From Woeseiaceae bacterium (lineage in GTDB: Bacteria > Pseudomonadota > Gammaproteobacteria > Steroidobacterales > Woeseiaceae): a stretch of 64,000 nt of DNA. Location of the stretch: positions 10,169 to 74,168 of the forward strand of contig JAHEFF010000006.1 of the NCBI GenBank assembly GCA_024640315.1, written 5' to 3'. This document shows, in pieces, positions 19,609-52,946 of the stretch. Position 1 is the first letter of the stretch. Each line of letters opens with the position of its first letter. The translations under genes were made by a program, and so were the position numbers. The notes beneath the pieces are model-generated. The model worked only from the letters and a program-made list of their open reading frames with translations. It was not told where the DNA came from and did not search any database.

Positions 19609-20106
19609 TCAGATGTAGATGATGATCGTATTCAGCGTTGCATCACAGTTGATGATGTCGACTCGCTTGGATCTGATCTTGTAGCGGTCTCCGTCCCTGA
19701 CAAGTTCGTGCGTGTACTTGCCAGCGTATGGCGTTTGTTTGTCGCGGTAGTACAGGAAACAGTGAAAGTTCGACGTCACCGTGCAATCACCTGACTTCTC
19801 ATCCAGTTCCCGGACCTGAACATTTGAGATAATGTGTGACGCGCGAACATCATAGTCCTTGGACGCTGCAGCCGGGTGTACGAAATTTCGTCGTCTCACC
19901 TCCATAAGCACGCGATCATCATAGAAAAGCGAGATGTGCGTGTGCGGATCTTCCTGGTCAGGAATCGCCGGCATCCAGTAGGTACCATCCTCTGTGTAGA
20001 GATTGATCCAGGCGTCGAGGTCCGGCCGGTCGAGACAAGCGGCTTCCTGGTAGAGTAGCTGCTCTATTTCGCGGATCTTCTCGTTACTTGTAATGACGGC
20101 GGTCAT
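19609..20106 (-). CDS. aromatic-ring-hydroxylating oxygenase, beta subunit
   Basis: 165 aa with NTF2/SnoaL-like fold and a small-subunit pattern (LLYQEAACLD...W..LYTEDGTYWMP...FVHP). 1 nt downstream of the alpha subunit. Confidence 0.85.
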   Translation of the reverse strand: MTAVITSNEKIREIEQLLYQEAACLDRPDLDAWINLYTEDGTYWMPAIPDQEDPHTHISLFYDDRVLMEVRRRNFVHPAAASKDYDVRASHIISNVQVRELDEKSGDCTVTSNFHCFLYYRDKQTPYAGKYTHELVRDGDRYKIRSKRVDIINCDATLNTIIIYI

Positions 20107-20107
20107 C

Positions 20108-21406
20108 TCACGCGGCCTCCGTCATGTACTCTCGCCAGGCACTGAACTGCGTCCTGACGTCGAGGTCACTGGTTCCCTTGCCGACCATCCGGTCTTCCAG
20201 CTTTTCATCCCGGGCAAAATTTCGGTGCATCTCGATCCAGTCGGAAGCCTGCGACTGCAAACCTTCCTGCATGCGGAAATAGGCAGTGAGATCATCCGGG
20301 CCAACCATCGAACCATTGGAATTTATCAATCGCGAATAAAGCAGCGTTCGTTTCAGCATGGAATCCGGCGCGCCCTTTAGCCGGAATGACCAGGTCTCGA
20401 TGATGGTCTTGTTGTAGGCAATGGGTCGCACGACGCGAATGTTCTGCACCGCGGACTTGATCGTCAACGACGGGTAGTAGAGCGTATTGTGCGTGTTAAA
20501 GGAAAGGATCTCCTGCATCCTCTCTTTGCCATAGGCCTTCAACATCGCGGCTTCATACTCAGGATCCAGCGTGTATTTCGCGTGAATACTCGTCTTGCCG
20601 CCATCGTAGTGGTGGCCGAACCTGAAACCGGTGATGCCGGTTTCCTCAAAGGTTTCATACGATGCGCCAAATGGCGGAATGATTTCAGCTTCGTCGCGGC
20701 GCGGCGAGCCTTCCGGCAGTGTCTTTATATAGTCGAGCGCCGATTCGACCACCGAGCGATGCACAATCATCGGGTGCATTGTGTCATTCAGATTCTCGAT
20801 GAACATCTTCCAGTTACACTCGTGCTCATAACGCAAGACACCACCCGCCGCTTCGACTTCCCCTTCCGGCGCCCGATCACACAAGTTGTCCATGACATCG
20901 GCAGCGCCACCCATCCACGTGCGAAGGTCGGGAGGATTCGGATTCATCGTCGCGAATACGAAGCCGCGAAAGCTCTCGGACGTCATTTTCTGCATACTGT
21001 ATTGCGGATCGTCCTTGTCGAAATCAGTACCGTCATAGCCCTGCAAGTGCGGCACGCCCAATAATTTTCCGTCCAGACGATAGCGCCAGCCGTGATAGCA
21101 ACAACGAAAGGCCGGGATCTTGCCACATGGCCGGTCGACCAGTTTCGCTCCTTTGTGACCACAACGGTTGTGCAGAACGTGCACGTCATTGTCGTTGTCC
21201 CGGACCATGACGACCGGTACTTTGCCGTAGTTGAGCGTCATGTAACTGCCCTTCTCGGGCACCTGGCTTTCGTGCCCGATGTAGATCCAGGCATTCGCCC
21301 AGATTCGTTCCATTTCCAGGTCGAAGATCTCGGGGTCGGTATAAAGACTTCGGTGCACCTTCGTCGGCTGCACCATGTCGGCAATTTGCTGTTCCGTGTA
21401 ACTCAT
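20108..21406 (-). CDS. Rieske non-haem-iron aromatic-ring-hydroxylating oxygenase, alpha subunit
   Basis: 432 aa. Rieske motif CGHKG...CCYHGWRY and mononuclear-iron motif NLNDTMHPMIVH. Confidence 0.9.
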   Translation of the reverse strand: MSYTEQQIADMVQPTKVHRSLYTDPEIFDLEMERIWANAWIYIGHESQVPEKGSYMTLNYGKVPVVMVRDNDNDVHVLHNRCGHKGAKLVDRPCGKIPAFRCCYHGWRYRLDGKLLGVPHLQGYDGTDFDKDDPQYSMQKMTSESFRGFVFATMNPNPPDLRTWMGGAADVMDNLCDRAPEGEVEAAGGVLRYEHECNWKMFIENLNDTMHPMIVHRSVVESALDYIKTLPEGSPRRDEAEIIPPFGASYETFEETGITGFRFGHHYDGGKTSIHAKYTLDPEYEAAMLKAYGKERMQEILSFNTHNTLYYPSLTIKSAVQNIRVVRPIAYNKTIIETWSFRLKGAPDSMLKRTLLYSRLINSNGSMVGPDDLTAYFRMQEGLQSQASDWIEMHRNFARDEKLEDRMVGKGTSDLDVRTQFSAWREYMTEAA

Positions 21407-21420
21407 TGCTGGGTCCTCAT

Positions 21421-23811
21421 TTATTTCTGCAGCACTTCACCACGCGCCACTGCGATCGCCAGCGCTTCGCTGGGGTTCGGCGGCTTGGCTGCGCTGCGCA
21501 ATTCAAGCATTTCCTCATTTGCTTTCGCTGCCAGGATCTCCGCCATGAATTTCCCGGACGAGTACTGGGGCGCCCAATACTGATTCGAATATCCATAATG
21601 CGCCGCTGCTTTTAGTACAAAGTGGGGTTCGTTCATGATGGAACGACCCAATGCGACGATGTCGGTTCGACCGGCGGCAACCAGGGTGTTCGCCTGGTCA
21701 GCCGAGGTAATATTGCCAGCGACAATAGTTGGAATGCCGACTTCATTTCTGATCTGGTCGGAAAACGGCGCCTGGAACATGCGCCCATAGATCGGATCCT
21801 CATCCTTGGTAACCTGACCTGTCGACACGTTAATGATGTCGATTCCGGCATTCTTCACCATCGTTGCCACAGCGAGCATGTCGTCCTCAGACAGCCCGCC
21901 ATCGACCCAGTCGGTTGCCGAAATTCGTACCGACATTGGCTTGTCCGCAGGCCATGCCGCGCGCATCGCCGTAACAACGCGAAGCGGAAACTTCATGCGA
22001 CTGTCGATATCGCCGCCAAACTCATCGTCACGTCGATTGGTGCAAGGACTGATGAAGCTCGACAACAGGTAACCATGCGCCAGGTGGACTTCGATCATAT
22101 CGAAGCCTGCCCGCGCGGCGTTTTCTGCCGACTTCACAAAAAGTTCGGTGACGGCGTCCATGTCCTCGCCCGTCATCTCTCGCGGCACAACACTGTGTTT
22201 GAGATAGGGAAGCGGTGATGGCGCAATGATTTCCCAGCCGCCTGCCGGCAGAGGCTCGTCAATGCCACCTTTCCAGGGAACGCAGGTCGCGCCTTTGCGG
22301 CCGGCGTGGCCAATTTGCGCACAAATCTTCGCCTTGCTGTTTTTATGAACAAAATCAACAATATGACGCCATTTTTCGGTCTGCTCAGGGCTCCAGATAC
22401 CGGCGCATCCAGGGGTGATTCGCCCGTCCGGCGCCACACAAATCATTTCGGTATTCAGCAAACCCGCGCCACCGACCGCGCGCGCTCCGTAATGCATAAG
22501 GTGCCATTCTGTCGGCATGCCGTCTTCCGCACAGTACTGCGCCATCGCAGACAACTGGAACCGATTCTCGACCCGCATGTTGCCGATTTTGAACGGCTGG
22601 AACACTGGCACAGTCGGGTTTTCCGTATCGATGTCATGAAAACCCGTCGTTGCCTTGGCGTGACCGGCGAACCACTTATCCATCCTCTCTATGTAGTCCG
22701 GATCCCTGAGCCTGAGGTTTTCATACGTCACGCGTTTCGCCCGACACATCATATTGAACGTGAACTGCTCGGCTTCCTGCGTGCCACCATAACGGTCGAT
22801 GTGTTCGAACCAGCTGAGGGACACCACAGCGGTTCTCTGCAGGCGGTCGGCCTCATCCTTGCGAATGTTCTGATACATTTCGAGTGCTTTTTGCACGTCA
22901 TTGCCACACTGAGCGAAATATCCGGCGAGTGCGATGGCATCTTCCATCGCCAGTTTCGTACCGGAACCGATGCTGAAGTGTGCGCTGCGCACCGCGTCGC
23001 CCATCAGTACGATGTTCTTGTAGAAAAGACGTTCATTGCGGACGACCGGAAACGTGCGCCAAACTGATCGATTCGTAACAATCGGGTAGCCATCGAGATC
23101 GTCTTTGAACAATTCTTCGCAGTAGGCCCTGGTGTCCTCCTCGGTCGCATGTTCCATACCGGCGGCAGCCCAGCTATTTTCACTTGTCTCAACGATCCAT
23201 GTCGTCGTGCCCTCTTCGTAGCGATAGGCATGCGCCCACCACCAGCCATGTTCGTTCTTGCGGAAGATAAACTCGAAATCATCAATTGGCTTGGACGTCG
23301 CAAGCCAACAGAACTTGTTGGCACGCCAGTCCATCGTCGTGCCAAATTCGTCCTGGTACTTCTCACGCAGAATCGACGTAATACCGTCGCCGGCAACGAC
23401 GAGATCGTATTCATCCGTATGCAAATCATCGACATCGGTGATATCTGTGTTGAACCTGATGTTGACGCCGAGTTCGTCACAGCGATCGTGAAAGATATTG
23501 AGCAGCTTCAGCCGGGACATGCCGCAGAAGCCGTGCCCTTGCGAATTCACGGTCTTACCATGAATCTTTGTGTCAATACCGCCCCAGTAAGCGAACTGTT
23601 CGACAATCCGTTTGTAACTTGCGGCGTCGGCTTCCATGAATCCACGCAGTGTCTCATCCGAAAACACCACGCCGAATCCCCAGGTTGAATCGCGGTCCCC
23701 CCGTTCGATAACCGTAATGTCATGCGACGGATTCGCTTTCTTCATCAGGATCGAGAAATAAAGTGATGACGGACCGCCACCGAGACAAAGAATTTTCAAA
23801 CCATCAGCCAT
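21421..23811 (-). CDS. bifunctional FAD aromatic hydroxylase :: Old-Yellow-Enzyme reductase (2-aminobenzoyl-CoA monooxygenase/reductase / salicylyl-CoA 5-hydroxylase type)
   Basis: 796 aa. N-terminal half: ILCLGGGPSSLYF (FAD dinucleotide fold) and GDAVRSAHFSIGSGTKLAMEDA. C-terminal half: OYE/TIM-barrel NADH:flavin oxidoreductase (HLMHYGARAVGGAGL, EVHLAHGYLL, GRS..N/EP). Confidence 0.85.
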   Translation of the reverse strand: MADGLKILCLGGGPSSLYFSILMKKANPSHDITVIERGDRDSTWGFGVVFSDETLRGFMEADAASYKRIVEQFAYWGGIDTKIHGKTVNSQGHGFCGMSRLKLLNIFHDRCDELGVNIRFNTDITDVDDLHTDEYDLVVAGDGITSILREKYQDEFGTTMDWRANKFCWLATSKPIDDFEFIFRKNEHGWWWAHAYRYEEGTTTWIVETSENSWAAAGMEHATEEDTRAYCEELFKDDLDGYPIVTNRSVWRTFPVVRNERLFYKNIVLMGDAVRSAHFSIGSGTKLAMEDAIALAGYFAQCGNDVQKALEMYQNIRKDEADRLQRTAVVSLSWFEHIDRYGGTQEAEQFTFNMMCRAKRVTYENLRLRDPDYIERMDKWFAGHAKATTGFHDIDTENPTVPVFQPFKIGNMRVENRFQLSAMAQYCAEDGMPTEWHLMHYGARAVGGAGLLNTEMICVAPDGRITPGCAGIWSPEQTEKWRHIVDFVHKNSKAKICAQIGHAGRKGATCVPWKGGIDEPLPAGGWEIIAPSPLPYLKHSVVPREMTGEDMDAVTELFVKSAENAARAGFDMIEVHLAHGYLLSSFISPCTNRRDDEFGGDIDSRMKFPLRVVTAMRAAWPADKPMSVRISATDWVDGGLSEDDMLAVATMVKNAGIDIINVSTGQVTKDEDPIYGRMFQAPFSDQIRNEVGIPTIVAGNITSADQANTLVAAGRTDIVALGRSIMNEPHFVLKAAAHYGYSNQYWAPQYSSGKFMAEILAAKANEEMLELRSAAKPPNPSEALAIAVARGEVLQK

Positions 23812-23822
23812 CTACTTCACCG

Positions 23823-24548
23823 CTACAGCGAGAGCGAGCCAAGACTCGCGCCCCCACATACGAAAAGACATTGTCCCGTGACGAAGCCGTTGTCGGGCGC
23901 CGCAAGAAACATAACCGCTCTCGCGACATCGTCAGCACGACCCAGGCGCCTCACTGGCAAACCTCTGGCAATTTGTTCGGCCTTGTCGCTGTCTTCCGGA
24001 ACAACATCCGTAAACATGTCTGTCAAGATAGGCCCGGGGGCGACAGCGTTGACCGTAATGCCGTGCTGGCCAAGCTCCATGGCCCAGGTCCGAACCAATC
24101 CTATTTGCGCAGCCTTGGTCGCCGAGTAGGACGTGCGTGTCTCGAGCCCCAGCATGGCACGTGACCCGATGATGACGATTCGGCCAAAACCGGCACGTTT
24201 CATGGCATCAAGCACACCCTGCGTCAACACTATGCTTGCTGACAGGTGCAGGTTCGTCAGGTACTGCAGGTCCTCAAGCTGCACATCTTCAATGAGGTTT
24301 GGCCGGATCACACCGGCGTTGTGTACGAGCGTCGTAATGTCGTACTGGCCGGCAAGTTCTGCGATGGCTTCCTTTGTCGCCTCAACGTCGGCAAGGTCGA
24401 CCGGATGATCAATCAGTCGCTCATGGCTGCTTTCTGATCCCCGGCGGGAAAGGTTTAGAACGACATACCCATCCTCCAGCAAATGCTGGCAGATGCTCTT
24501 CCCTATCCCGGCGCTAGCGCCGGTTACCAGTGCAATTTTTTCGCTCAT
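23823..24548 (-). CDS. short-chain dehydrogenase/reductase
   Basis: Track ORF trimmed to MSEKIALVTGASAGIGKS, whose ATG overlaps the upstream stop as ATGA. Has NAG and YSATKAA catalytic motifs. Confidence 0.85.
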   Translation of the reverse strand: MSEKIALVTGASAGIGKSICQHLLEDGYVVLNLSRRGSESSHERLIDHPVDLADVEATKEAIAELAGQYDITTLVHNAGVIRPNLIEDVQLEDLQYLTNLHLSASIVLTQGVLDAMKRAGFGRIVIIGSRAMLGLETRTSYSATKAAQIGLVRTWAMELGQHGITVNAVAPGPILTDMFTDVVPEDSDKAEQIARGLPVRRLGRADDVARAVMFLAAPDNGFVTGQCLFVCGGASLGSLSL

Positions 24549-25336
24549 GCAGCACTCCTGTCGACCAGGGCCAGCACGCGCAGCGGGCTTCCGGAACCGT
24601 TTTTTATTTTTAGCGGCGGGCACACAAGAATCGCTCCGGTCGGTGGCAGCTCATCAAGATTGGCCAGGCACTGCAATCCGTATTTGCCGGCACCATGCAA
24701 CAAATAGTGCGCGGGGTACGGTGGCGACAGATGGGTCGCCTGACCAGCATCTGTTCCCACCGTTTCTGTACCGAAGCCAATGATCTTGCGTTCCTCGACG
24801 AGGAGTTTTACCGCATCTCCGGTCGGACCCGGTGTATGCGCGCCATCATCGCGCATGTTCAGGTATTCTGCGCCGGATCGCTTGGACCAGTCGGTGCGCA
24901 TCAGCACCCAACTCCCCTCCGGTATGACACCGTGTGTTTGTTCCCAGGCGACGATGAATTCCGGCGTCAGCAAAAAGTCTTCATCGTCGGCCGATTCCTG
25001 CGAACAATCGATCACACATACAGGGCGGACAAAAGCGTCGGCCGGAATGCTGTCCACGGCGGCATCGGGAAGATCCTTGCCGGAAATCCAGTGAATAGGT
25101 GCATCAAAATGCGTGCCCGTATGTTCGCTACAGGTAAAGTTGCGCCAGTACCACGCAGGACCTCGCTCATCGTAACGAGACACTTCTTCGACACGAAAAC
25201 GGGCGCATTGCCCAAATTCCGGTGGCAACACGATGACCGGAAAGTCCGGGTCCAGCGTGTGCGTCAGGTCGACGGTTACGATGCTGCCGCTCGTTAGTGC
25301 ACCAGCAAGCGCCTGCAGTGCATTCGTTTCATTCAT
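24545..25336 (-). CDS. cyclase-family metal hydrolase (kynurenine formamidase / isatin hydrolase family)
   Basis: 263 aa. The HTGTHFDAPIHW motif (HxGTHxDxPxH) is diagnostic for the putative-cyclase/KynB fold. Confidence 0.85.
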   Translation of the reverse strand: MNETNALQALAGALTSGSIVTVDLTHTLDPDFPVIVLPPEFGQCARFRVEEVSRYDERGPAWYWRNFTCSEHTGTHFDAPIHWISGKDLPDAAVDSIPADAFVRPVCVIDCSQESADDEDFLLTPEFIVAWEQTHGVIPEGSWVLMRTDWSKRSGAEYLNMRDDGAHTPGPTGDAVKLLVEERKIIGFGTETVGTDAGQATHLSPPYPAHYLLHGAGKYGLQCLANLDELPPTGAILVCPPLKIKNGSGSPLRVLALVDRSAA

Positions 25337-25338
25337 AT

Positions 25339-26595
25339 TTACATGCCCTGGTTGATTTGGGTCAGTTCTCTTTCGAGAACAAATGGGTCCTCTTTGTAGC
25401 GCCGCACAACGTCTTCAGCGACCGGGCCGAGCGTTACATTTTCGATGCCCTGGGTCAGCGCATGAATGACCGTGTCGGCAAGCCGTTGCGGTGTCACTTT
25501 GGGTGGCGGCAACGGCTGACGCCACGATTCCTCCAGCGGACCAAACAGCACATTGATCACTTTGACACCGCTGCCCGCAAACTCGCCACGCAGGCACTGG
25601 CTGAGCGAGAGCGCCGCCGCCTGGCTTGCCGAGGTCGTGCCATATACAGGCCAGTTGGAGAGAGAGTAAACCGACAACAGGTTAACCCAGGCGCAAGCGC
25701 TGTTATCACCGTCTGCGCCGCGCGCTTTCATGCCGGGCCCAAATGCCTGAATCAGCCGCATCAACCCAAAGTAGTTTGTCTCCATCTCGTCGCGGGCCAG
25801 GGTGACGCCGTGCCGCTGCATAACGGATCCCGGACGGACGTATTCAGCAGTATTGATAAGGATGTCTGCCTTGTCTCCCATCTCTGCGGCCAGTTCGTTG
25901 ACCGAAATTGTATCGGTGATATCGAGCGGCATAATCTCGACGCCGGGAATCGCTTCAAGTGCCTCGCTGCCCTCGTACGGCCGCCATTTCTCGGCAATGC
26001 CAACGAAGATCCGGGTAGCACCGGCGTCAGCGAGCGCCTTGACCATGCGCTGGCCGAGTTCGGTACGCCCGTCGGTGACGAGCGCACGACGGTACTTGGG
26101 ATTACAGGTCAGCGCTCGCAGTTGTCGATCGTCTGCCATGTTCGGTGTCTCCTTTTCGGGTAGCGCCAGCATGACGCCCTGCCCGGATTTATCGGTTCGG
26201 GCAATCATTCTCACCCGTTCGAATTCGCCCACGTCGCCATGAATGTGCGCCAGCACGGTCGGCCCGGCATCGAGCTGAATGGTGCCAATGCGCCACGGCA
26301 TTCTTTCGCGGAAATAGGAATTGACGCTGGTTCGAAGCGTTGTCTCGGAAATCAGCTTGCCGCCATCAGGGATGTCCCGCCATTCGAGTTCCATCGACCA
26401 GCACTTCGGGCAAACTTCGCGCGCGGGATAAGTAACGTGCTCACATTCGGCACAAACCTGCAGCGCGAATCGCCCTTCCGCTGCCGCCAATGTAAATGCA
26501 ATCGCCTTGCGACTGCGCGCATACGGCGGCAGCGTCGGCGAGTTCGTGCGTTTTTGCGGGTCCTTCTTGGGCGGTCGCTTGAGCGCGTCAGTCAT
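25339..26595 (-). CDS. DUF35 (Zn-ribbon + OB fold) fused to a degenerate SDR-like domain
   Basis: Trimmed to MTDALKR (ATGA overlap with the upstream stop). N-terminal part: CAECEHVTYPAREVCPKC four-Cys ribbon plus OB region. C-terminal part: Rossmann-like ALVTDGRTELG, with VYGTTSASQAAAL where SDRs carry Y-x-x-x-K. Confidence 0.75.
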   Translation of the reverse strand: MTDALKRPPKKDPQKRTNSPTLPPYARSRKAIAFTLAAAEGRFALQVCAECEHVTYPAREVCPKCWSMELEWRDIPDGGKLISETTLRTSVNSYFRERMPWRIGTIQLDAGPTVLAHIHGDVGEFERVRMIARTDKSGQGVMLALPEKETPNMADDRQLRALTCNPKYRRALVTDGRTELGQRMVKALADAGATRIFVGIAEKWRPYEGSEALEAIPGVEIMPLDITDTISVNELAAEMGDKADILINTAEYVRPGSVMQRHGVTLARDEMETNYFGLMRLIQAFGPGMKARGADGDNSACAWVNLLSVYSLSNWPVYGTTSASQAAALSLSQCLRGEFAGSGVKVINVLFGPLEESWRQPLPPPKVTPQRLADTVIHALTQGIENVTLGPVAEDVVRRYKEDPFVLERELTQINQGM

Positions 26596-27812
26596 GTCCG
26601 CCCCAGTATCGCTGCGCCGGAACAAAGCCCGCGATCGAAATTAATAATGCCAAAGCCGGATACCGCGGCGTATTGCGCGTCGGGAACCGCATTCTGCTCT
26701 GCACCGCCGGTTAGCTGCCTGATCGCCTCGACCAGGCCGAGGAAACCTCCGGCTGCGCCTGCCTGGCCAACCGACAACTGACCACCCGAGGTATTGTGCG
26801 GAAACGTGCCATCGTAAGTGAATGTATTGGACTGAATGAATTCGCTGACAGATCCCTTCTCGCAAAAGCCAAGATCCTCCATCTGCATCGCACTGATGAC
26901 CGGGTAATCATCATACGTCTGCAACAGGTCAACATCCCCGGGACTGATGCCGGCCATGCTCCAGAATTCATCCTTGTCCAGCGCCCAGCCACCACGAATC
27001 TGTACCGGATCGTCGGGATATGAGTTGTGTCGCTCCACGGTGGAGAGAATGTGCGCATACGGCAGGTTTTGTGCCCTCGCATCCTCTTCGCGCATAACGA
27101 GGTAAGCTTCCGCGCCAGCACAGGGCATGACGCAGTCGTACAGCACAATCGGGTCAGCTATCAGCCTGGCGCTCATGTATTCGTCCAGCGTCAGCGGCTT
27201 CTTCATCATCGCGTGCGGATATTTCAGCGCATTGTCGCGCTGGGCGACGCACAGCTTGCCAAAGTCTTCCCGCTTGACGCCATAGGCGTCCATGTAGCGG
27301 CTGGTCATCAGCGAGAAACTGCCGTTCGGCCCACCTGAGCCATACGGATACGAAGCATCCTGGGAAAACCGGCTGAAGGTGGTCAGCATCGCTCGAAATG
27401 AGTCAACGTGATTGGTATCGCCCGAGATACAGGCAACGACGCTGGCATCGCCGGACTGCACAGCCCTGGCGGCACGCCGCAAGGTAATCACGCCCGATGC
27501 GCCACCGGTCGGCACGTGATCGAGCCAGCGCGGCGTAAGCCCGAAATGCTGCGTCAAACCTGCGGCGGTATCAGGAAACAAGGTGAACGACGAAACGCAC
27601 AATCCGTCCACATCGTCGGCACCCAGCCCGCTTTGCTTGCCAAGGTCAGATAACACTCTCGCAAGCCACCAGTGGGCAGGCTCAGGCGAATACCGCTCAT
27701 AAGGAACGCTTGCGGGTGCGGTCACCACCACACCCTCATATCCCGAACGATGTTTGACTGAATTTCGCACTACATCCTTTTTCTTTTCTTGAATTCCCTG
27801 AGATCGGCGCAT
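26592..27812 (-). CDS. thiolase-fold protein of the SCP-x/Ltp type lacking the thiolase catalytic residues
   Basis: 406 aa with the typical SCP2-thiolase scaffold (NTSGGQLS.G...G). By-eye alignment shows GGASG in place of the nucleophile CxxG, YDDY in place of HDCF and GQA in place of GHP. The start is uncertain: 27812 overlaps the ligase gene by 43 nt, and GTG 27770 is an alternative. Confidence 0.8.
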   Translation of the reverse strand: MRRSQGIQEKKKDVVRNSVKHRSGYEGVVVTAPASVPYERYSPEPAHWWLARVLSDLGKQSGLGADDVDGLCVSSFTLFPDTAAGLTQHFGLTPRWLDHVPTGGASGVITLRRAARAVQSGDASVVACISGDTNHVDSFRAMLTTFSRFSQDASYPYGSGGPNGSFSLMTSRYMDAYGVKREDFGKLCVAQRDNALKYPHAMMKKPLTLDEYMSARLIADPIVLYDCVMPCAGAEAYLVMREEDARAQNLPYAHILSTVERHNSYPDDPVQIRGGWALDKDEFWSMAGISPGDVDLLQTYDDYPVISAMQMEDLGFCEKGSVSEFIQSNTFTYDGTFPHNTSGGQLSVGQAGAAGGFLGLVEAIRQLTGGAEQNAVPDAQYAAVSGFGIINFDRGLCSGAAILGRT

Positions 27813-29365
27813 TCTTTTTTCGCGATGCGGTCGCGTGCCATCTGCTTGATTTCACCACGACTCACTTTCTGCGAAGCAGTCAGCGGCAGCTCTGGCACAA
27901 ACGCGATGTAACCAGGCACCTTGAAGTATGTCAGATGCTTCATACAATGATCGAAGATTTTGCGGGCATCCGCGCCTTTCTCATTGATAATAAAGGCAAA
28001 AACCTCATCGCCCCGGATCTCGTCAGGCACCGCACAGACCGCGCAGCCGATCACGTCGGAGCTTTGCAGAAGCACCGCTTCGACCTCGACCGCAGCGATG
28101 TTCTCACCGCTTCGTCGAATGACATTCTTGCGCCGGTCGACGAAGTAGAGAGAGCCGTCGTCACCTTCGCGGACAACATCTCCCGTGTGCCACCAGCCAC
28201 CCTTCCAGCCTTTCTCGGTCGCTTCAGGGTCCTTGTAATAGCCGCTGAAGAATCTCTTCCTGGGGTCGTCGCCTTTTGCTCGAACCAGCAGTTCTCCGGC
28301 TTCACCGGCCGGCACGTCTTCGTCCTGCTCATCCACGACACGGTAGTCCATCGAATCGATTGGCGGACCGATGCAACGACTGCCAACGTGCCGCGGATCT
28401 TTGTACGCAATGGTCATCCCGCCGGCGCCCGACTCCGTCATAGCCCAGGCCTCGATCAACGGTACGCCGAATCGTTTTTCGAACACACCCTGGTGTTTCG
28501 GGTCAGATCCGGGACCAAAACAAAATTTGATCTGCCCCGAAAAATCGTCGCGATCATCTTCCGGCAGTGTGAGCAGAATTGCCGTCATCACGCCCAGGCA
28601 ATGAATGATAGTTGCCTTTTCTTCGCGAACCGTTTGCCACCAGGTGCGCGGGTGGAAACGATCTAATTGGATTACGCAGCCGCCAGAAAGCATCATCGCC
28701 GGGAATGACGTGCACAGCGCGTTCATGTGATTTGGCGGCAGCGGCGTCATCAGCCGGTCGTCCTTATCCATGCTGCAGATTCCACCGAGTCCGACGTACC
28801 AGTCCCCCAACGCCAGAAAATACTCGTTCGACAGCATACAACCCTTGGGTTTACCGGTCGTACCGGAGGTGTACAGCAATGCGGCTTCTGCAGACAAGTC
28901 GGGCCTGGCAAGCTTCGCGGCGCCCACACTGCCAGTCAGGTCGGATTCGGCGATGACTTCGCAAATGTCCAGCCCGGCAAATCGTTCGCCGTACTCGGGC
29001 AGCGCAACGAGCAGCCGGCTGTCACTGTGACCGACGATATGCAGAAGCTCATCGTCACTCGCGCCGGAGTTTAAGGGCACAATGCTGACGCCCAGCGCAT
29101 TCAGCGCAAGCAGGTGAAGATAAACCTCAAGGCGACTGTCGAAGGCCAGCGCAACCCGGTCGCCGGGCTCGAGGCGTCTTGCCGCGTAGCCGACGATCAA
29201 CTGGCCGACCCGGGTTCTTGTTTCTTCGTATGAGTATTCGATCGCGGAGTCTGAATAAGCCTTTGCACTGTCAGCGGGCACACGAAGAAAGGACCGCGGA
29301 CCATACTCCTCAACAGCCCGTTCGAACGCCTGATATACGCTGTGCTGTTCCGCGACTGATCCCAT
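27770..29365 (-). CDS. AMP-forming acyl/aryl-CoA ligase
   Basis: Has LYTSGTTGKPKGCM, TGD and a C-terminal K motif. Trimmed to MGSVAEQ, so that TGATG overlaps the upstream stop by 1 nt. Confidence 0.9.
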   Translation of the reverse strand: MGSVAEQHSVYQAFERAVEEYGPRSFLRVPADSAKAYSDSAIEYSYEETRTRVGQLIVGYAARRLEPGDRVALAFDSRLEVYLHLLALNALGVSIVPLNSGASDDELLHIVGHSDSRLLVALPEYGERFAGLDICEVIAESDLTGSVGAAKLARPDLSAEAALLYTSGTTGKPKGCMLSNEYFLALGDWYVGLGGICSMDKDDRLMTPLPPNHMNALCTSFPAMMLSGGCVIQLDRFHPRTWWQTVREEKATIIHCLGVMTAILLTLPEDDRDDFSGQIKFCFGPGSDPKHQGVFEKRFGVPLIEAWAMTESGAGGMTIAYKDPRHVGSRCIGPPIDSMDYRVVDEQDEDVPAGEAGELLVRAKGDDPRKRFFSGYYKDPEATEKGWKGGWWHTGDVVREGDDGSLYFVDRRKNVIRRSGENIAAVEVEAVLLQSSDVIGCAVCAVPDEIRGDEVFAFIINEKGADARKIFDHCMKHLTYFKVPGYIAFVPELPLTASQKVSRGEIKQMARDRIAKKECADLREFKKRKRM

Positions 29366-30819
29366 CAGTCGGGCACCTCCCAATGCGGGGGTAACAAACG
29401 GCGTTTTCCGTCACTGGACAAGGAAACGCCGGGCGCGTCCTTGTCCTCGCGATCCCACAATTCGCAGGTAACCTGCTTGTGCCTGGTATCGAGGGCCTCG
29501 CAGTAGTTTGAATAGATGCAGACCCTGACCTGGTCTCCGTAACCAAGCCGCATTTTCAGGAACCAGTCCGGATCCGCAATTGACTGTCTTGCAGAGCCTA
29601 TGATGTCAGCCTCACCGGCCTGCAGTATTCGCTCTGCCTCGACGAAGCCGTGAATGCCGCCTGCGACGACTACCGGCGTTTCGTAACCAGCCTCTCTGAT
29701 CGCGCGCCGCACCTGGGCCGTCGCGGGAAGATTGCGGCCGAAAGGGCCTTTCTCGTCAGAAATGTACTGCGGCATGCATTCGTAACCGCTCTGGCCTGTG
29801 TACGGATAAGCCGCCGCCCCTACCTTCGGCTGTTTCGCGTCCTCGAATTTGCCACCGCGCGACAGTGACAGGAAATCCATGCCAGCTCTCGCAAACTCCA
29901 CGCCGAAATATGCCGCGTCATCTGCCACCGAACCCCGCTCGATAATTTCGTCGGCGAGAAAACGGCAGCCCACAACGTAGTCGTCGCCAGTGGCTTGCCG
30001 CACAGCACGGTATACCTCAATCGGCAGGCGCGCGCGACCTGCAAGATCACCACCATAGCCGTCGTCGCGAGTGTTGCGCGCTGAAAGGAATGAGGCCATC
30101 GTATAAGCGTGAGCAAAGTGCAGCTCGACACCATCGAAACCCGCCTTTTGTGCACGCACTGCTGCATCGGCAAAAAGGCGTGGAAGCGTCTGCGGAAGGT
30201 CCCTGATGTGAGGTAAATCAGTATCGGTCACGCGCTCCCGGTAACCCTGTGCATAGCTCTCGTACTCGCGCCGGCTGAGTGCCTCGACGAGAGCCTCATC
30301 CGTCAGCTCCAGAAGTTTTTCGCGAATCTCTTCGTCGGTAAATTTGTTGTAGAAATACGCGCGATGTTCGTCAGTGATTTTAAGGTAACGCTCGAAGTAC
30401 TTCTCGGCTGTCGGCCGGCGGTTGATGCGCAGGAAGTCGATGATCTGAATGAAGAGCTTCGTTTCACCTTCACTGGCTTCGCGAACCGCTTCTACCAGTT
30501 CCTGTAGTCCGGGAATAAAACGGTCATCGCCGATCCGGAGTAATGGCCCGCTGGGGACATCGCGAATACCGGTCGCCTCGACGACAATAACGCCGGGCTT
30601 GCCTTCTGCGTAACGGCGGTACCAGTCGAGCACATCCGACGTGATCATGCCATCTTCCGTCGCGCGCCAGGGTACCATCGCCGGGACCCAGGTTCGTTGC
30701 GACAACCGGGTCGGCCCGATCGCGACAGGGCTGAACAACTTCGATGCAGCAGCCTCTTCTGCTGTCGGCCACGGACCCGGCTGTGGTTTGTATTTGATTC
30801 TTTCTTTTGGTCGCCACAT
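29365..30819 (-). CDS. NADH:flavin oxidoreductase (Old Yellow Enzyme / 2,4-dienoyl-CoA-reductase N-terminal-domain type)
   Basis: 484 aa. Contains GVELHFAHAYTMASFLS and a GG.GR.RL-type motif. A C-terminal Cys-containing stretch (CIYSNYCEALDTRHKQVTC) resembles an incomplete FadH Fe-S motif. Confidence 0.82.
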   Translation of the reverse strand: MWRPKERIKYKPQPGPWPTAEEAAASKLFSPVAIGPTRLSQRTWVPAMVPWRATEDGMITSDVLDWYRRYAEGKPGVIVVEATGIRDVPSGPLLRIGDDRFIPGLQELVEAVREASEGETKLFIQIIDFLRINRRPTAEKYFERYLKITDEHRAYFYNKFTDEEIREKLLELTDEALVEALSRREYESYAQGYRERVTDTDLPHIRDLPQTLPRLFADAAVRAQKAGFDGVELHFAHAYTMASFLSARNTRDDGYGGDLAGRARLPIEVYRAVRQATGDDYVVGCRFLADEIIERGSVADDAAYFGVEFARAGMDFLSLSRGGKFEDAKQPKVGAAAYPYTGQSGYECMPQYISDEKGPFGRNLPATAQVRRAIREAGYETPVVVAGGIHGFVEAERILQAGEADIIGSARQSIADPDWFLKMRLGYGDQVRVCIYSNYCEALDTRHKQVTCELWDREDKDAPGVSLSSDGKRRLLPPHWEVPD

Positions 30820-30827
30820 CGTATCGA

Positions 30828-31607
30828 TTAGTCCCGGGAACCGGTCTCCTGTAATTGCGCTTCGAATGAACCCCTGATGTAGTCCGGTATCCGGATGGAC
30901 TCAAATCCGTCATCCAGCATTTGCACAAAAACGACCACCTGTTCGTTTTCAACGAGGCACTCCTCGTTGCTGACCAACCAGCTTTTGAATGTCATGGACC
31001 GGTCGCCGATCTTGACGGGACGAAGCCAGATCGAAACGGATTCGCCAACCGCAGGGAGCCTCCTGACACGCGTATTGAACTGAACGGTTGGGATGCCGAC
31101 TTTGCGTTCGACGTGCAATTCATTAAACGGCACATCAAGCGTGGCTTCGAACCACTCCTCAATTGCCTGGTTCAAAAGCTCGAAGTACCGTGACAACTGC
31201 ATGCATCCGGTCCGACCCGAGGACCACTCGCCGACAACTTCCGGTTCCGTTATGAAAGCTACGGCGTTTTGCCGGTGCGCATCAGCCGCTAGTTCACTGT
31301 GGGTTTCCAGCGGGCGCATCGAAAAACAGTCGTTGCCGTTCATCCGGCCTGTCACGGACCAGCCACCGGACTTTGAATCGGCGTCAACAGCGATACTGAT
31401 CTGGTCACCGAGCCGGTTTGGTTTCAGAAATTGCGTCTTGATTGCTGTGGGCGTTCCCGCAAATGGCACATCAGCGAAATGGCGAAAGATCATCTCGAAA
31501 TATCGTGGATAAAAGACGATGCCGGCCGGATCCACCTGGGGAAATCGGATCGTCACCACGCGCTCCGCCAGTCGGGGCATTTGCTCGCCTTTACTGTTTG
31601 CAGTCAC
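30828..31607 (-). CDS. tandem hot-dog (4HBT-type) acyl-CoA thioesterase
   Basis: 259 aa with two repeats of the 4HBT pattern (VDPAGIVFYPRYFEM..., LSRYFELLNQAIEEWF...). GTG start at 31607. ATG 31580 (MPRLAERV) is an alternative. Confidence 0.68.
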   Translation of the reverse strand: MTANSKGEQMPRLAERVVTIRFPQVDPAGIVFYPRYFEMIFRHFADVPFAGTPTAIKTQFLKPNRLGDQISIAVDADSKSGGWSVTGRMNGNDCFSMRPLETHSELAADAHRQNAVAFITEPEVVGEWSSGRTGCMQLSRYFELLNQAIEEWFEATLDVPFNELHVERKVGIPTVQFNTRVRRLPAVGESVSIWLRPVKIGDRSMTFKSWLVSNEECLVENEQVVVFVQMLDDGFESIRIPDYIRGSFEAQLQETGSRD

Positions 31608-31627
31608 AACAGCCCTGAACCGCCTCT

Positions 31628-31647
31628 TGTTTTCTTATGTTTTCTTG
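31628..31647. repeat. tandem 10-bp direct repeat TGTTTTCTTA/TGTTTTCTTG in the thioesterase-MarR divergent intergenic region
   Basis: Read directly, 9/10 identical units, 21-40 nt from the thioesterase GTG. Function unknown; possibly an operator or UP-like element. Confidence 0.4.
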
Positions 31648-31780
31648 TTTGCCCGGCAATTATTATAAACTTAAAATAACTCAGTGTAAAAAATCGATCA
31701 TGACTTATTTGAGGTTCGCAATTGCTTTCCCGCCACGATATTATTGGCGCCGCCACTCCTGCCAGAGAACGTGTATCTCC

Positions 31781-32251
31781 ATGAATCAAAAAGAAAAAAT
31801 ACCAAGCAAGGGCGACTCGAGAACCAAGGAATCCATACGAACCTGGCTGCGACTCTTGTCCTGCGAGACGGTCATCGAGCAGCAATTGCGCTCTCTTTTC
31901 AGGACCAATTTTTCGGTCACCCTGCCTCAATTCGACGTACTGTCCGAACTTGAGCGGACAGGCGAGCAGATGACGATGTCCGAGCTCTCAAGAGAACTCA
32001 TGGTCTCTAACGGCAACGTGACCGGCGTCATCGACCGGCTGGAGAAAAACGGCTTTGTCACCAGGACCCGCGCAGAACACGACCGTCGCGTCCAGTATAT
32101 TGAGCTGACGCCAAAGGGCCTTGGCGAATTCAATGAAATGGCCCGACATCATGCCTCCTGGCTCGATGATATGCTTTCAGATTTGTCGATGAACGACATG
32201 GCAAGTCTGCAGCAATTGCTTCTCAAAACGAGGAGCTCTGCCGGTAAGTAA
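31781..32251 (+). CDS. MarR-family transcriptional regulator
   Basis: Track ORF 31637..32251 trimmed to MNQKEKIPSKG. Winged-helix core LPQFDVLSELERTGEQMTMSELSRELMVSNGNVTGVIDRLEKNGFV.R..EHDRR. Confidence 0.85.
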   Translation: MNQKEKIPSKGDSRTKESIRTWLRLLSCETVIEQQLRSLFRTNFSVTLPQFDVLSELERTGEQMTMSELSRELMVSNGNVTGVIDRLEKNGFVTRTRAEHDRRVQYIELTPKGLGEFNEMARHHASWLDDMLSDLSMNDMASLQQLLLKTRSSAGK

Positions 32252-32292
32252 TTTGTCACAACTCCGTCCCCGCCAGATGTTTGGAGATCGAT

Positions 32293-32700
32293 TCACCTGG
32301 CGCGATCAACTGCCCGGGGAATAATGGCGGTCGACTCAATTTCGATCATCGCGTTTGGCTCAACGAGGCCTGTCACACCCACAACCGCCATCGCGGGAAA
32401 ATTCTTGCCCATGACGTCCCTGTAGGTTCGACCGATGCCGGGAAGATTATTCCGGTAATTTTCGAGGTCAGTGACATACCAGGTCATTCGCACGACATGC
32501 TCGGGACCGGCGTCCGCTTCTGCGAGGACCGCGACCGTGTTCCTGAGCGTTTGTTCCAGTTGTTCAACGAAGTCATCCGGAAACTCTCCTTTTTCATTCC
32601 AGCCAATCATGCCGGCCACGTGGACCTGCTGTCCGCTGGCAAGAATTCCATTTGAATATCCGCTTGGCCTTGACCATCCCTGCGGTAGTAAATGCTTCAT
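32293..32700 (-). CDS. ridA: RidA/YjgF-family enamine/imine deaminase
   Basis: 135 aa. GYSNGI...HVAGMIG...PAMAVVGV..L.....IEIE pattern of the YjgF/RidA fold. ATGA overlap with the ACAD stop. Confidence 0.88.
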
Positions 32701-33860
32701 TGATTGTTTCCACTGTAGGTTTGTCTTGCGATGATAATTTTCTGCACTTCGCTCGCGCCTTCATAGATTCGTAGAGCACGAATTTCGCGATAGAGGCTTT
32801 CTGCCATGTTGCCCTTTGTGACGCCCTTTCCACCGTATAGCTGTACTGCCCGGTCGATTATTTTTTGCGCCGCCTCAGTCGCATAGAGTTTTGCCATCGC
32901 CGCTTCGCGCGTGACCCGATCCTGGTAGCAGTCTTTCGCCCACGCAGACCTGTAAACCAGCAGCGCGCTTGCATCGATCTCAGTCGCCATGTCGGCAACG
33001 GCGCTTTCCGTCATTTGCAACGCGGCGAGCGGCGCTCCGAAAATTTGCCGGGTAGTCGTATGTTGCAGCGCTTCATCCAGCGCACGCCTGGCGAAGCCCA
33101 AAGCAGCGGCCGCAACGGTGGTGCGAAACACATCCAGTGTCGCCATTGCGACTTTGAAACCTTCACCTGCAGCGCCAATCATTGCCGAGTTCGGGACACG
33201 GCAGTCATTGAACGAGAGCGTTGCCAGGGGATGTGGCGCAATCGTCTCGATACGCTCCGTGATCGAAAGACCCGGATTATTTGCATCAACAATGAAAGCA
33301 CTCAGGCCTCGGGCACCTGGCGCTTCCCCGGTACGCGCAAAGACGCAATAGAAGTCAGCGATTCCGCCGTTCGAAATCCAGGTCTTCGCGCCATTGAGAA
33401 CGAATTCGTCCCCTGCCGCTACAGCGGTTGTCGCCATCGCCCCAACATCGGAGCCCGCTTCAGCCTCCGACAATGCAAACGCTGCAATCGTTTTGCCTGC
33501 GGCCACGCCTGGCAGGTAGTTCCTGCATTGTTCATCCGTACCGAAAAGCGAGATCGGGCCGCTACCAAGACCCTGCATTGCAAAAGAAAAGTCGGCCAGG
33601 CCTGAGTGATATCCGAGAGTCTCCCGGCACAATGCAAGACTTCTCACATCGAGTTTATCTGCGGCGCCACCCCATTCGGCAGGAACGCAATTTCTGAGAA
33701 TCCCGGCCTTTCCAAGATCAACCACCAGTGAGCGGCATAATTCGTCGACGTCGCCATCGTGGCTGAACACTTGCTGCCCACACCAGTCATCGAGGCCGGC
33801 CTTCAATTTGCGATGGCTGTCCTCCAGGAATGGCCAGTCGAGATAACTTTTGTCACTCAT
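32697..33860 (-). CDS. acyl-CoA dehydrogenase
   Basis: Trimmed to [11 protein letters not shown]; the Arg-rich 41-aa extension in the track overlaps the upstream gene. Has GSDVGAM, WISNGG and the catalytic-base region [17 protein letters not shown]. Confidence 0.9.
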
Positions 33861-33864
33861 TGCA

Positions 33865-34671
33865 TCAGTCGCCTTCGAAGTCCGGTTTTTCCTTGTTGAC
33901 GAACGCTTTGTACGCGCGTTCGAAATCAGCCGTCTGCATGCAGATTGCCTGTGCCTGGGCCTCTGCCTCGATTGCTTCGTCAATCGACATGTCCCACTCT
34001 ACGTTGAGCTGATTCTTCGTCATGCCGTGCGCGAAATTTGGACCGGCTGCGAGTTTTGCCGCCGACGTCAACGAATGCGTCATTAATTCTTGCGGCTCGG
34101 CCAGTGCGTTGAACCAGCCCCAGCGCTCGCCCTCCGCGGCGCTCATCGAACGGCCCGTGAACAGAAGTTCGGACGCCCTGCCCTGACCGATGATTCTCGG
34201 CAAGATTGCACAGGCACCCATGTCAGCCCCGGCAAGTCCGACGCGGGTAAAGAGAAACGCCGTTTTTGATCGCGGCGTCCCATAACGAAGATCGCATGCC
34301 ATCGCGATCGCCGCGCCGGCACCGGCACATATTCCATCGATAGCACCGATTACGGGTTGCGGACAATGTCGAATTGCTTTGACCAGGTCGCCCGTCATGC
34401 GGGTAAACTGAAGCAGACCCTTCATATTCATTTTCGTCAACGGACCGATGATTTCGTGCACATCACCGCCTGAGCAGAAGTTCTCACCGGCGCCGGTGAT
34501 GACGACAGCTTTCACCTCGTTGTTCGACACCAGTGAACGAAACGTATCCCGGAGTTCGGCATAGGAATCGAACGTCAGGGGATTCTTTCGCTCCGGTCTG
34601 TTCAACGTGACTGTTGCGACACCGCTGCCGTCAAGTTGCCACAAAAAATGCTCGGGATTGATAGTAGTCAT
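33865..34671 (-). CDS. enoyl-CoA hydratase/isomerase (crotonase fold)
   Basis: 268 aa. Contains [16 protein letters not shown] and [19 protein letters not shown] (oxyanion-hole motifs). Confidence 0.9.
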
Positions 34672-34678
34672 TGTGTTC

Positions 34679-35434: not shown

Positions 35435-35480
35435 GCGAAATGCTCCAGCTTGATGGTCGCCAAATGCCCTCTGAAGTTAG

Positions 35481-39109: not shown

Positions 39110-39330
39110 GTCTCGACACCGTTATTGCCAATATCCGGCACCATGATAGACCACTGTCGGGTTCGCGCGGTCTTTGTAGCGTAATCGACGTCAAAGCGGT
39201 CCAGGTACATGGGTGCGATCGCTTCACCGCAGATGCCTGGAAAGATCGGGATCAGCATAACATTTTAAGGTTAAAATATCAGTCGACTGCCATCGTCATT
39301 ATCCCGCCCTGATCGCATAAGGCTTTGTTT

Positions 39331-40632: not shown

Positions 40633-40644
40633 AATTCTCTCCGT

Positions 40645-43026: not shown

Positions 43027-43035
43027 TTTTTCAGG

Positions 43036-43068
43036 AAAAAAAAGGGTGCATTGCTGCACCCTTTTTAT
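43036..43068 (-). terminator. strong intrinsic (bidirectional-looking) terminator after the TBDR gene
   Basis: aaaaaaaa-gggtgca-ttgc-tgcaccc-ttttt. On the minus strand the GC stem is followed by eight T. It sits 21 nt after the TBDR stop, and its T-tract ends 9 nt before the acylase ATG. Confidence 0.7.
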
Positions 43069-43088
43069 ATACCAGCTTTCACCGTGGA

Positions 43089-45347: not shown

Positions 45348-45421
45348 TCTATTACCCCGAAAACAATTTTGATTACAATTTGGACTGCCAATATTTAATA
45401 GTTAAAGCAATCGACCAAGAA

Positions 45422-51510: not shown

Positions 51511-51514
51511 GATG

Positions 51515-52933: not shown

Positions 52934-52946
52934 TTCGCACCTCGTT

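Follow-up and report, generated by a model that had tools for sequence, protein, structure and literature searches.

The iad locus of Variovorax serves to break down indole-3-acetic acid (IAA) (Finkel 2020; Conway 2022, PMC9613470; bioRxiv 10.1101/2025.10.25.684584; PMC12852158), and two of its genes, iadG and iadH, are the closest described counterparts of the gene pair considered here. The pair lies on the minus strand, within positions 25339..27812, of a 64,000-nucleotide (nt) stretch of a Woeseiaceae bacterium (GenBank assembly GCA_024640315.1, contig JAHEFF010000006.1, positions 10,169 to 74,168); this whole stretch is called the window below. It encodes a thiolase-fold protein and a fusion of a DUF35 domain with a short-chain dehydrogenase/reductase (SDR) fold. 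Our analysis suggests, with a probability of roughly 0.65, that the two proteins together cleave the coenzyme A (CoA) thioester of dioxindole-3-acetate by a retro-aldol reaction, and that the SDR domain is not catalytic.

In Variovorax paradoxus CL14, deletion of iadF, iadG, iadH or iadI each blocks the formation of anthranilate, and the same four deletions accumulate C10H9NO4, which is dioxindole-3-acetate (bioRxiv 10.1101/2025.10.25.684584). From annotation only, IadF was assigned as an acyl-CoA synthetase, IadG as a "ketothiolase EC 2.3.1.16" and IadH as an "alcohol dehydrogenase"; the side-chain step was proposed to be a "reductive removal" giving C8H7NO2, and IadJ was given a role in forming dioxindole-3-acetate (bioRxiv 10.1101/2025.10.25.684584). 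Isatin, isatinate and dioxindole had earlier been detected in Variovorax. Loci of the iad type are regulated by MarR proteins and have IorA and IorB as marker genes; IAA is also degraded by R. pomeroyi, whose MarR is classed as IadR. No mention of DUF35, of missing catalytic residues or of an aldolase mechanism was found in the searchable iad literature. The genes iadG and iadH are known and genetically essential in Variovorax, and are biochemically uncharacterised.

Thiolase-fold proteins with a DUF35 partner are known from several other pathways. CtSal and the DUF35 protein CtShy form the bile-acid side-chain aldolase of Comamonas testosteroni (PDB 9MYR; PMC12329534). Tyr302 and Cys304 of the YDCY motif of CtSal are essential, Gly89 replaces the thiolase nucleophile, and Gln347 and Gln352 flank the Cys (PMC12329534). 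TcLtp2 and its DUF35 partner ChsH2 form a steroid C17 side-chain aldolase (PDB 6OK1) that acts on a tertiary beta-hydroxyl on a ring carbon, the same chemical logic as that proposed here. In the ibuprofen pathway of Sphingomonas Ibu-2 and R. wittichii (plasmid pIBU218), the thiolase-like IpfD and the DUF35 protein IpfE likewise occur with a CoA ligase and a Rieske dioxygenase, and their step has been described as that of a retro-aldolase removing the acyl-CoA side chain from the hydroxyl-bearing ring carbon. In principle, therefore, an aromatic CoA pathway is no new setting for a thiolase-like/DUF35 lyase. The benzoylsuccinyl-CoA thiolase BbsAB and the archaeal thiolase/HMG-CoA synthase/DUF35 complex (PDB 7PXP, 6ESQ) also have the SCP-x-type fold and an obligatory DUF35 partner; unlike IadG, they are true thiolases with the catalytic Cys residues.

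Results

The gene pair and its locus

By homology and gene order, the pair is identified as the IadG and IadH orthologues of an iad-type IAA catabolic locus, of which the window holds iadR, A, B, F, G, H, I, J, D and E. The two genes belong to a tightly packed minus-strand run of CoA ligase, thiolase-like gene, DUF35-SDR fusion, cyclase-family gene and canonical SDR, with junctions of -1, -4, +2 and -4 nt:

27770..29383, minus strand: iadF-like AMP-forming acyl-CoA ligase (Pfam AMP-binding and AMP-binding_C)
26592..27770, minus strand: iadG-like thiolase-fold protein of 392 amino acids (aa), predicted retro-aldolase (Thiolase_C_1, 9myr_A)
26592..26595, minus strand: ATGA start/stop overlap of iadG and iadH (read from the sequence)
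25339..26595, minus strand: iadH-like fusion of 418 aa, with N-terminal arm, DUF35 (zinc ribbon and OB fold), linker and SDR-fold domain (Pfam)
24545..25336, minus strand: iadI-like isatin hydrolase, 2 nt downstream of iadH (match to LaIHA, 5nna_A)
23823..24548, minus strand: iadJ-like canonical SDR with TGASAGIG and YSATK, overlapping iadI by 4 nt (Pfam, motifs)

This order is near-universal in 80 related loci of Gamma-, Alpha- and Betaproteobacteria. The cyclase is present in 78 of the 80 and the thiolase-like gene in 74, the iadF-like ligase lies upstream of the pair in 68, and Rieske oxygenase and IorA/IorB-type genes are often near; the 4-nt overlap between iadG and iadH is kept in 58/74 related loci. 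The closest matches of the fusion, at 86-93% identity, come from metagenome-assembled genomes (MAGs) of Woeseiaceae, and other carriers are found in Reyranella, Ruegeria, Roseibium, Bradyrhizobium, Rhizobiaceae, Rhodocyclaceae and Burkholderiales. Gene order and annotation equal those of Variovorax iadC-D-E-F-G-H-I-J and agree as well with those of R. pomeroyi DSS-3 and R. aggregatum, whose loci are of the iad type. The R. pomeroyi counterparts are 58% and 47% identical to the window pair. Besides the order iadF-G-H-I-J, the window locus has in common with Variovorax the neighbours MarR, IorAB, Rieske alpha and beta subunits and penicillin amidase, and the step of the pair would likewise come after dioxindole-3-acetate and before the isatin hydrolase reaction. 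What sets the window locus apart from that of Variovorax is its origin in an uncultured marine gammaproteobacterium and its merging with 2-aminobenzoyl-CoA genes. The next gene encodes a close orthologue of isatin hydrolase A: comparison of the window IadI with this enzyme from Labrenzia (Roseibium) aggregata (LaIHA, 5nna_A) gives E 5e-133 and about 75% identity, and the gene in the corresponding place on an R. aggregatum plasmid gives a full-length match to the crystallised LaIHA (E 2e-174).

Both genes of the pair exist as mechanical open reading frames on the minus strand, at 26592..27812 and 25339..26625. An earlier note on this DNA, read from the letters alone, had described the two genes as coupled through an ATGA, and this is the case: the iadH-like gene starts at the ATG at 26595, within the ATGA common to the iadG-like stop. 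The same note took the upstream gene to reach 27812. Its start is most likely the GTG at 27770, because nearly all homologues have 392 aa, and because at this position the gene overlaps the TAG stop of the ligase by one base and has an AGGA 5 nt upstream. A tblastn search with both proteins found no paralogue of either in the window.

Catalytic positions of IadG

The SCP-x-type thiolase fold of the iadG-like protein is indicated by Thiolase_C_1, its sole Pfam match (E 4e-31), together with matches to PDB 9myr, 4u4e, 7yvy and 6ok1. Its NCBIfam matches are lipid-transfer and thiolase-domain subfamilies, and the NCBIfam matches of IadG and IadH alike all lie far under the family cutoffs. A hidden Markov model (HMM) search of structures gave CtSal (9myr_A) as the nearest solved relative, with E 1e-49 and 31% identity. 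Catalytic positions were placed by HMM alignments to solved structures and by a MAFFT alignment, which together locate three sites:

27495..27509, minus strand: TGGAS, with Gly (27501..27503) at the position of the thiolase nucleophilic Cys (alignments)
26904..26915, minus strand: YDDY at the HDCF position, equivalent to CtSal Y302-D-C304-Y and Ltp2 YDHF; Cys replaced by Asp, Tyr kept (alignments)
26754..26795, minus strand: NTSGGQLSVGQAGA, with Gln at the His position of thiolase GHP; CtSal Q347 and Q352 both conserved (alignments)

At the nucleophile site IadG reads PTGGASG where an archaeal thiolase reads EAACASG, and the GGAS aligns with ACAS of a true thiolase and with GGAS/GGGA of CtSal/Ltp2. 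The Cys nucleophile, the HDCF Cys and the GHP His of a true thiolase are replaced by invariant Gly, Asp and Gln; the earlier note had read the same three replacements by eye, and neither kind of alignment restores a Cys/His/Cys triad. The Gly at the Cys position, YDDYP and GGQLSxGQAG are found in 75/75 orthologues, drawn from the 80 genome loci, and YDDYP is also present in the sister clade. The two flanking Tyr that had been pointed out are indeed there in YDDY, and only the first, Y286 (392-aa numbering), corresponds to a known catalytic position: it aligns with CtSal Y302 and Ltp2 Y294 and is invariant. The partner of this Tyr is likely to be the invariant Asp, not the second flanking Tyr.

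Like CtSal, IadG combines the thiolase fold with invariant equivalents of Gly89, Tyr302, Gln347 and Gln352, and has a DUF35 partner that is fused to another domain. Unlike in CtSal, the essential Cys304 is an Asp and the oxyanion-hole Gln161 is a Pro, and the substrate proposed for IadG is aromatic/heterocyclic instead of steroid. The partners differ as well: the ribbon of IadH is C4 and not C3H, and its N-terminal DUF35 is joined to an SDR fold, whereas that of CtShy is C-terminal to a MaoC hydratase. Ltp2, at 29% identity, has in common with IadG the Gly at the Cys position, the first Tyr (in YDHF) and the DUF35 partner; its general acid Tyr344 (GEAY) is absent from IadG (GQAG), and the His of YDHF is Asp. 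IpfD, at 28% identity, differs from IadG in its YDAF motif and in being without GQxG, and, unlike IadH, the DUF35 protein IpfE has no SDR part and stands alone as an OB-fold protein of about 130 aa. Because Cys304 is matched by Asp and Ltp2 Tyr344 by Gln/Ala, IadG is on its motifs neither Sal nor Ltp2 in the strict sense, and can be placed in a third motif class (YDDY); its remaining sequence features are those of thiolase-fold aldolases. A simple neighbour-joining tree, which is rough, also separates the YDDY family from CtSal, Ltp2 and 4U4E.

These comparisons bear on the earlier proposal of an Ltp2-like C-C lyase in an aromatic, non-steroid CoA pathway. Homology, invariant motifs, synteny and pathway chemistry support a cysteine-less thiolase-fold C-C lyase in such a pathway; its closest relative is CtSal, and the second Tyr of Ltp2 is not conserved. 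The proposal had also overlooked the precedent of IpfDE and the membership of the pair in an iad locus.

Besides ipfDE, plasmid pIBU218 of R. wittichii carries a second thiolase-like/OB-fold pair (L087:939-4557) with the Ltp2-type motifs GGGGA, YDHF and GEAYIHG. It adjoins an enoyl-CoA hydratase and a CaiB/BaiF CoA-transferase, and looks like another aldolase module outside steroid catabolism.

The DUF35 module and the degenerate SDR domain of IadH

Pfam recognises zf-ChsH2 (residues 37-70), OB_ChsH2_C (72-125) and adh_short (171-355, E 1e-14) in the iadH-like protein, in agreement with the DUF35 and SDR parts named in the earlier note. Its modules and motifs are:

26221..26487, minus strand: DUF35 module, zf-ChsH2 plus OB_ChsH2_C (Pfam)
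26401..26454, minus strand: four-Cys zinc ribbon CAECEHVTYPAREVCPKC, part of the DUF35 module
25342..26091, minus strand: SDR-fold domain with degenerate motifs (Pfam adh_short, motifs)
26053..26076, minus strand: TDGRTELG replacing TGxxxGxG, in the SDR domain
25621..25635, minus strand: TSASQ replacing YxxxK, in the SDR domain

Conservation was followed in 318 relatives of IadH, consisting of 81 genome orthologues and two database sets of 117 and 120. The four Cys of the ribbon are essentially invariant in all three sets, with one Cys-to-Ser change in the set of 120, and the DUF35 module gives weak direct matches to the DUF35 chains of 6esq and 9myr. In the SDR domain, Asp takes the place of the first Gly of TGxxxGxG in 316 of the 318 relatives and Asn in the other two (Asp in 79/81, 117/117 and 120/120, the rest of the first set being Asn), and the second Gly of the dinucleotide loop is replaced by Glu, Ala or Pro. 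The catalytic Ser is present in the window protein, with Thr at the Tyr position and Gln at the Lys position, and no Y-x-x-x-K occurs anywhere in the entire protein; the three other SDRs of the window carry TGxxxGIG and YSATK, YCAAK or YAASK. The degraded glycine motif and the missing Y-x-x-x-K had been read correctly in the earlier note. Across the family the Tyr position drifts among T, F, Y, H and S and the Lys position among Q, E, N, H and K; the catalytic Ser, like the Asn of NNAG, is conserved.

The nearest sequence relative of the domain is the SDR 5U4S of Burkholderia cenocepacia, an NADP complex of the NCBIfam PRK08264 group (E 8e-29). Like IadH, 5U4S is without the catalytic Tyr (LSASK); unlike IadH, which has TDGRTELG, Gln and the DUF35 fusion, it keeps TGADRGLG and the Lys and binds NADP. 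An AlphaFold2 model of IadH has a predicted local distance difference test score (pLDDT) of 90.4 and a predicted template modelling score (pTM) of 0.91, the latter suggesting a fixed domain arrangement, and the modelled SDR domain is nearest to 5u4s (target-normalised TM-score 0.92, root-mean-square deviation 1.9 Å). The SDR and DUF35 domains are equally conserved, with mean identities to the window protein of 64% and 64%. Drifting motifs within a domain of retained overall conservation fit a domain kept for structure and not for redox chemistry, and the SDR part of IadH is probably a conserved non-catalytic scaffold. A local pseudogene or artefact was considered as the origin of the fusion or of the residue losses and was ruled out, since these features are conserved in more than 300 relatives and both domains are equally conserved. 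The catalytic substitutions are a property of the family.

The genome collection contains the fusion in at least 168 species, and the JGI annotation already names it as a dehydrogenase/OB-fold protein. The earlier note, which did not recall such a fusion being described, thus missed how common it is; in our literature searches no paper discussing a DUF35-SDR fusion was found. More distant fusions, at 34-37% identity, retain TGASGGIG, NNAG and YCASK. Their upstream partners are proteins with GGAS, YDDYP and GQxG, likewise overlapping by 4 nt. Isatin hydrolase is missing from their loci, in which either TctABC accompanies a CoA-transferase or an enoyl-CoA hydratase accompanies a ligase. Because the distant fusions keep both the SDR motifs and the YDDY partners, the YDDY protein and the DUF35-SDR fusion form a wider family, of which the auxin branch has probably lost the SDR chemistry.

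Metagenomic sister systems (L083:2949-5287, L084:1279-3668 and L085:4835-7173) have a YDDY gene in 4-nt overlap with an intact-SDR fusion. Their neighbours are a family-III CoA-transferase with TctCBA transporter genes, or an AMP-ligase with enoyl-CoA hydratase, and these systems may reveal the role of the active fusion. Within the IadH family, a betaproteobacterial branch (L072 and L059, from Rhodocyclaceae and Burkholderiales MAGs; P0438-P0557) has HGTFSASKAAAH. In this branch the Lys is kept in 120/120 and the Tyr is changed to Phe in 118/120, with no exception to the Asp of the glycine loop; YSASK is retained in one Rhodocyclaceae locus (L072). Since retention of Lys and Tyr varies by branch, the degree of SDR decay differs between lineages.

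Discussion

Proposed reaction of IadG and IadH

Genetics in Variovorax, as given in the literature, shows that the Rieske oxygenase IadDE and the SDR IadJ convert IAA to dioxindole-3-acetate, which the ligase IadF, going by its annotation, would turn into the CoA thioester. The beta-carbon of dioxindole-3-acetyl-CoA is C3 of the oxindole ring, bearing the hydroxyl, the aryl carbon, the lactam carbonyl and the CH2. A tertiary alcohol of this kind cannot be dehydrogenated to a keto group. With no 3-keto group there would therefore be no thiolysis, and a thiolase would be without a substrate. Instead, IadG may carry out a retro-aldol cleavage, in which the Tyr of YDDY would deprotonate the C3 hydroxyl, the C3-CH2 bond would break to give isatin and the acetyl-CoA enolate, and the invariant Asp, at the place of CtSal Cys304, would protonate the enolate. 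Asp as proton donor or acceptor at the alpha-carbon of the acetyl-CoA enolate has precedents in citrate synthase and malate synthase. As retro-aldol products, isatin and acetyl-CoA balance the C10H9NO4 compound. By homology with Ltp2-ChsH2 and Sal-Shy, and also with BbsAB and the archaeal complex, the DUF35 of IadH would clamp IadG and shape the substrate cleft, and the SDR part, without its nucleotide-binding and catalytic motifs, would serve as a conserved structural domain. A heteromeric IadG-IadH complex with retro-aldol activity is thus predicted from the tertiary-alcohol substrate and the isatin hydrolase next door.

IadI, encoded immediately downstream, would then hydrolyse isatin to isatinate and so pull the cleavage. 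Aldol addition to isatin is chemically facile, and the cleavage is therefore probably drawn forward by isatin hydrolysis; this would also be the reason why a ΔiadI strain accumulates dioxindole-3-acetate. Dioxindole, which is reduced isatin, would be a side product. In the window organism isatinate is probably passed on to 2-aminobenzoyl-CoA. The genes themselves are known, and it is the mechanistic reading that is new and testable; as far as we have searched, there is no earlier description of the YDDY motif, of the DUF35-pseudo-SDR architecture or of the assignment to the auxin step.

Several points weigh against a retro-aldol cleavage with a silent SDR domain. Substrate, product and complex of IadG and IadH are all deduced. 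Replacement of CtSal Cys304 by Ala, Ser or His abolished activity, Asp not being among the replacements (PMC12329534), and Gln161, the proposed oxyanion-hole residue of CtSal, aligns with a Pro in IadG. The AlphaFold2 model of IadG, built from an alignment of shallow, closely related sequences only, reached a pLDDT of 56 and was discarded. The case for orthology to the tested Variovorax genes is built on synteny, on annotation and on the loci of R. pomeroyi, Roseibium and Bradyrhizobium, the R. pomeroyi DSS-3 locus and Burkholderiales MAG relatives having served as proxies for IadG and IadH of V. paradoxus CL14. With regard to the SDR domain, YSASK survives in a few relatives (L072) and the Lys in the Burkholderiales branch (FSASK), and the nearest solved SDR, 5u4s, binds NADP though it is also without the Tyr. 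Finally, C8H7NO2 (dioxindole) and not isatin accumulates without IadI, and the step was called a "reductive removal" (bioRxiv 10.1101/2025.10.25.684584), for which a reductase would be needed.

Such a reductase could be IadH itself. IadG would then still be an aldolase, and the SDR domain would act as a non-canonical NAD(P)H-dependent isatin/dioxindole oxidoreductase, which would explain the reductive outcome. Dioxindole is the product of strains that express iadCDEFGH and J without iadI (bioRxiv 10.1101/2025.10.25.684584) and was detected in Variovorax cultures; NADP binding by 5u4s without a catalytic Tyr and the conserved Ser and NNAG Asn speak in the same direction, and the intact TGASGGIG, NNAG and YCASK of the distant fusions indicate that the ancestral domain was probably active. 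A residual role is conceivable above all in the Burkholderiales branch with FSASK and in the rare YSASK members. We nevertheless consider an active reductase unlikely, as practically every one of the 318 relatives has Asp for the first Gly of the dinucleotide loop, with Glu, Ala or Pro for the second, and free drift at the Tyr and Lys positions is not expected of a working active site. Reduction of isatin would moreover be counter-productive when the next enzyme is an isatin hydrolase, and reductases of the host can explain dioxindole when isatin accumulates. A change of substrate is a little less probable again: the same machinery might act on another 3-hydroxy-3-substituted acyl-CoA, for instance from a halogenated or substituted indole acid or an algal oxindole-3-acetate. 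The window locus is rearranged relative to Variovorax and contains extra genes (resembling a 2-aminobenzoyl-CoA monooxygenase/reductase, old yellow enzyme (OYE), acyl-CoA dehydrogenase (ACAD), enoyl-CoA hydratase (ECH) and hotdog proteins), the IadC reductase is not adjacent, and with its counterparts in the alphaproteobacterial loci the Rieske alpha subunit shares only 40-55% identity. Yet IadI is about 75% identical to the isatin-specific LaIHA, the active-site motifs of IadG are invariant over all loci, including that of the IAA-degrading R. pomeroyi, and the extra genes fit the further catabolism of the expected product, 2-aminobenzoyl-CoA.

The annotation may also be taken literally, with IadG as a ketothiolase (EC 2.3.1.16) and IadH as an alcohol or 3-hydroxyacyl-CoA dehydrogenase, forming an ordinary beta-oxidation pair. 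The naming in databases and in the Variovorax papers follows this view, and the fold homology to thiolases and 3-hydroxyacyl-CoA dehydrogenases is real. It is nonetheless the least credible of the alternatives and very improbable, since the nucleophilic Cys, the acid/base Cys and the His occur in none of the 75 orthologues, the SDR is without YxxxK and Gly-rich loop, the tertiary beta-carbon leaves nothing to dehydrogenate, and the characterised homologues with Gly at the Cys position are aldolases. The retro-aldol reading can on the other side be carried further. IadG-type proteins might constitute a third catalytic class with a Tyr-Asp dyad (YDDY), always accompanied by a DUF35-SDR fusion, in which the SDR of the auxin branch is a structurally required pseudoenzyme within a multi-protein aldolase-hydrolase machine; we hold this extended proposal tentatively, and taken as a whole it is somewhat doubtful. 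In that case the SDR could, for example, form part of the substrate cleft, bind the nucleotide of CoA, or dock the isatin hydrolase to channel reactive isatin.

Neighbouring genes

The remaining genes of the locus and its surroundings are:

19609..20106, minus strand: iadE-like Rieske oxygenase beta subunit (homology)
20108..21406, minus strand: iadD-like Rieske oxygenase alpha subunit (homology)
21421..23811, minus strand: 2-aminobenzoyl-CoA monooxygenase/reductase (salicylyl-CoA 5-hydroxylase) family, between iadJ and iadD (NF006101)
29365..30819: OYE-like gene
30828..31607: double hotdog
31637..32251, plus strand: iadR-like MarR regulator (homology)
32697..35434: ACAD, ECH and SDR genes
35481..37049, minus strand: iadB-like indolepyruvate-ferredoxin-oxidoreductase-type 2-oxoacid oxidoreductase beta (homology)
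36977..39109, minus strand: iadA-like indolepyruvate-ferredoxin-oxidoreductase-type 2-oxoacid oxidoreductase alpha (homology)
39331..40632: PaaK-type ligase
40645..43059: iadL-like penicillin amidase (homology)
43089..45347: TonB-dependent receptor, upstream of the locus
45557..47032: amidase, upstream of the locus
47029..48588: sodium:solute symporter, upstream of the locus

The iad locus (19609..43059) is merged with genes resembling the aerobic 2-aminobenzoyl-CoA route. The product of 21421..23811, a fusion of FAD-monooxygenase and OYE-reductase, scores 1040 bits against NF006101 (cutoff 1078) and is a probable enzyme of a downstream step; a gene of this kind is present in 24/80 loci, all of the Woeseiaceae type. 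This restriction and the merging with 2-aminobenzoyl-CoA-type genes suggest that isatinate is converted to 2-aminobenzoyl-CoA via IorAB, instead of to free anthranilate. The 710-aa and 522-aa neighbours were also considered as hydantoinase subunits, which was rejected as they are of the IorA/IorB type. The Rieske genes iadD and iadE (19609..21406) have no adjoining PDR/VanB-type reductase (iadC), unlike in R. pomeroyi, R. aggregatum and Variovorax. The genes at 40645..48588 may serve the uptake and de-conjugation of IAA amide conjugates. A separate cluster at 50374..56084, with a methylamine-dehydrogenase-heavy-chain-like beta-propeller, an aldehyde dehydrogenase, an APH-family kinase, a class-III aminotransferase and an SDR (YAASK), is unrelated to the iadG/iadH pair.

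Implications

The iad locus mediates auxin removal by Variovorax, Bradyrhizobium and many marine bacteria and controls root development in plant microbiome models, and its side-chain removal step has so far been assigned from annotation alone. If this step is a retro-aldol cleavage to isatin and acetyl-CoA, the published scheme of a ketothiolase plus alcohol dehydrogenase with reductive removal would need revision, the role of the crystallised isatin hydrolases would be explained, and the step would be directly testable in vitro. The Tyr-Asp solution would join a small set of thiolase-fold aldolases, which are of interest as biocatalysts for C-C bonds because the aldol adducts of isatin are 3-substituted 3-hydroxyoxindoles. 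With IadH, nature would offer a clear case of an SDR that has become a conserved pseudoenzyme domain. The presence of the locus in Woeseiaceae, which are abundant in marine sediment, points to a turnover of auxin or indole acids beyond the rhizosphere.

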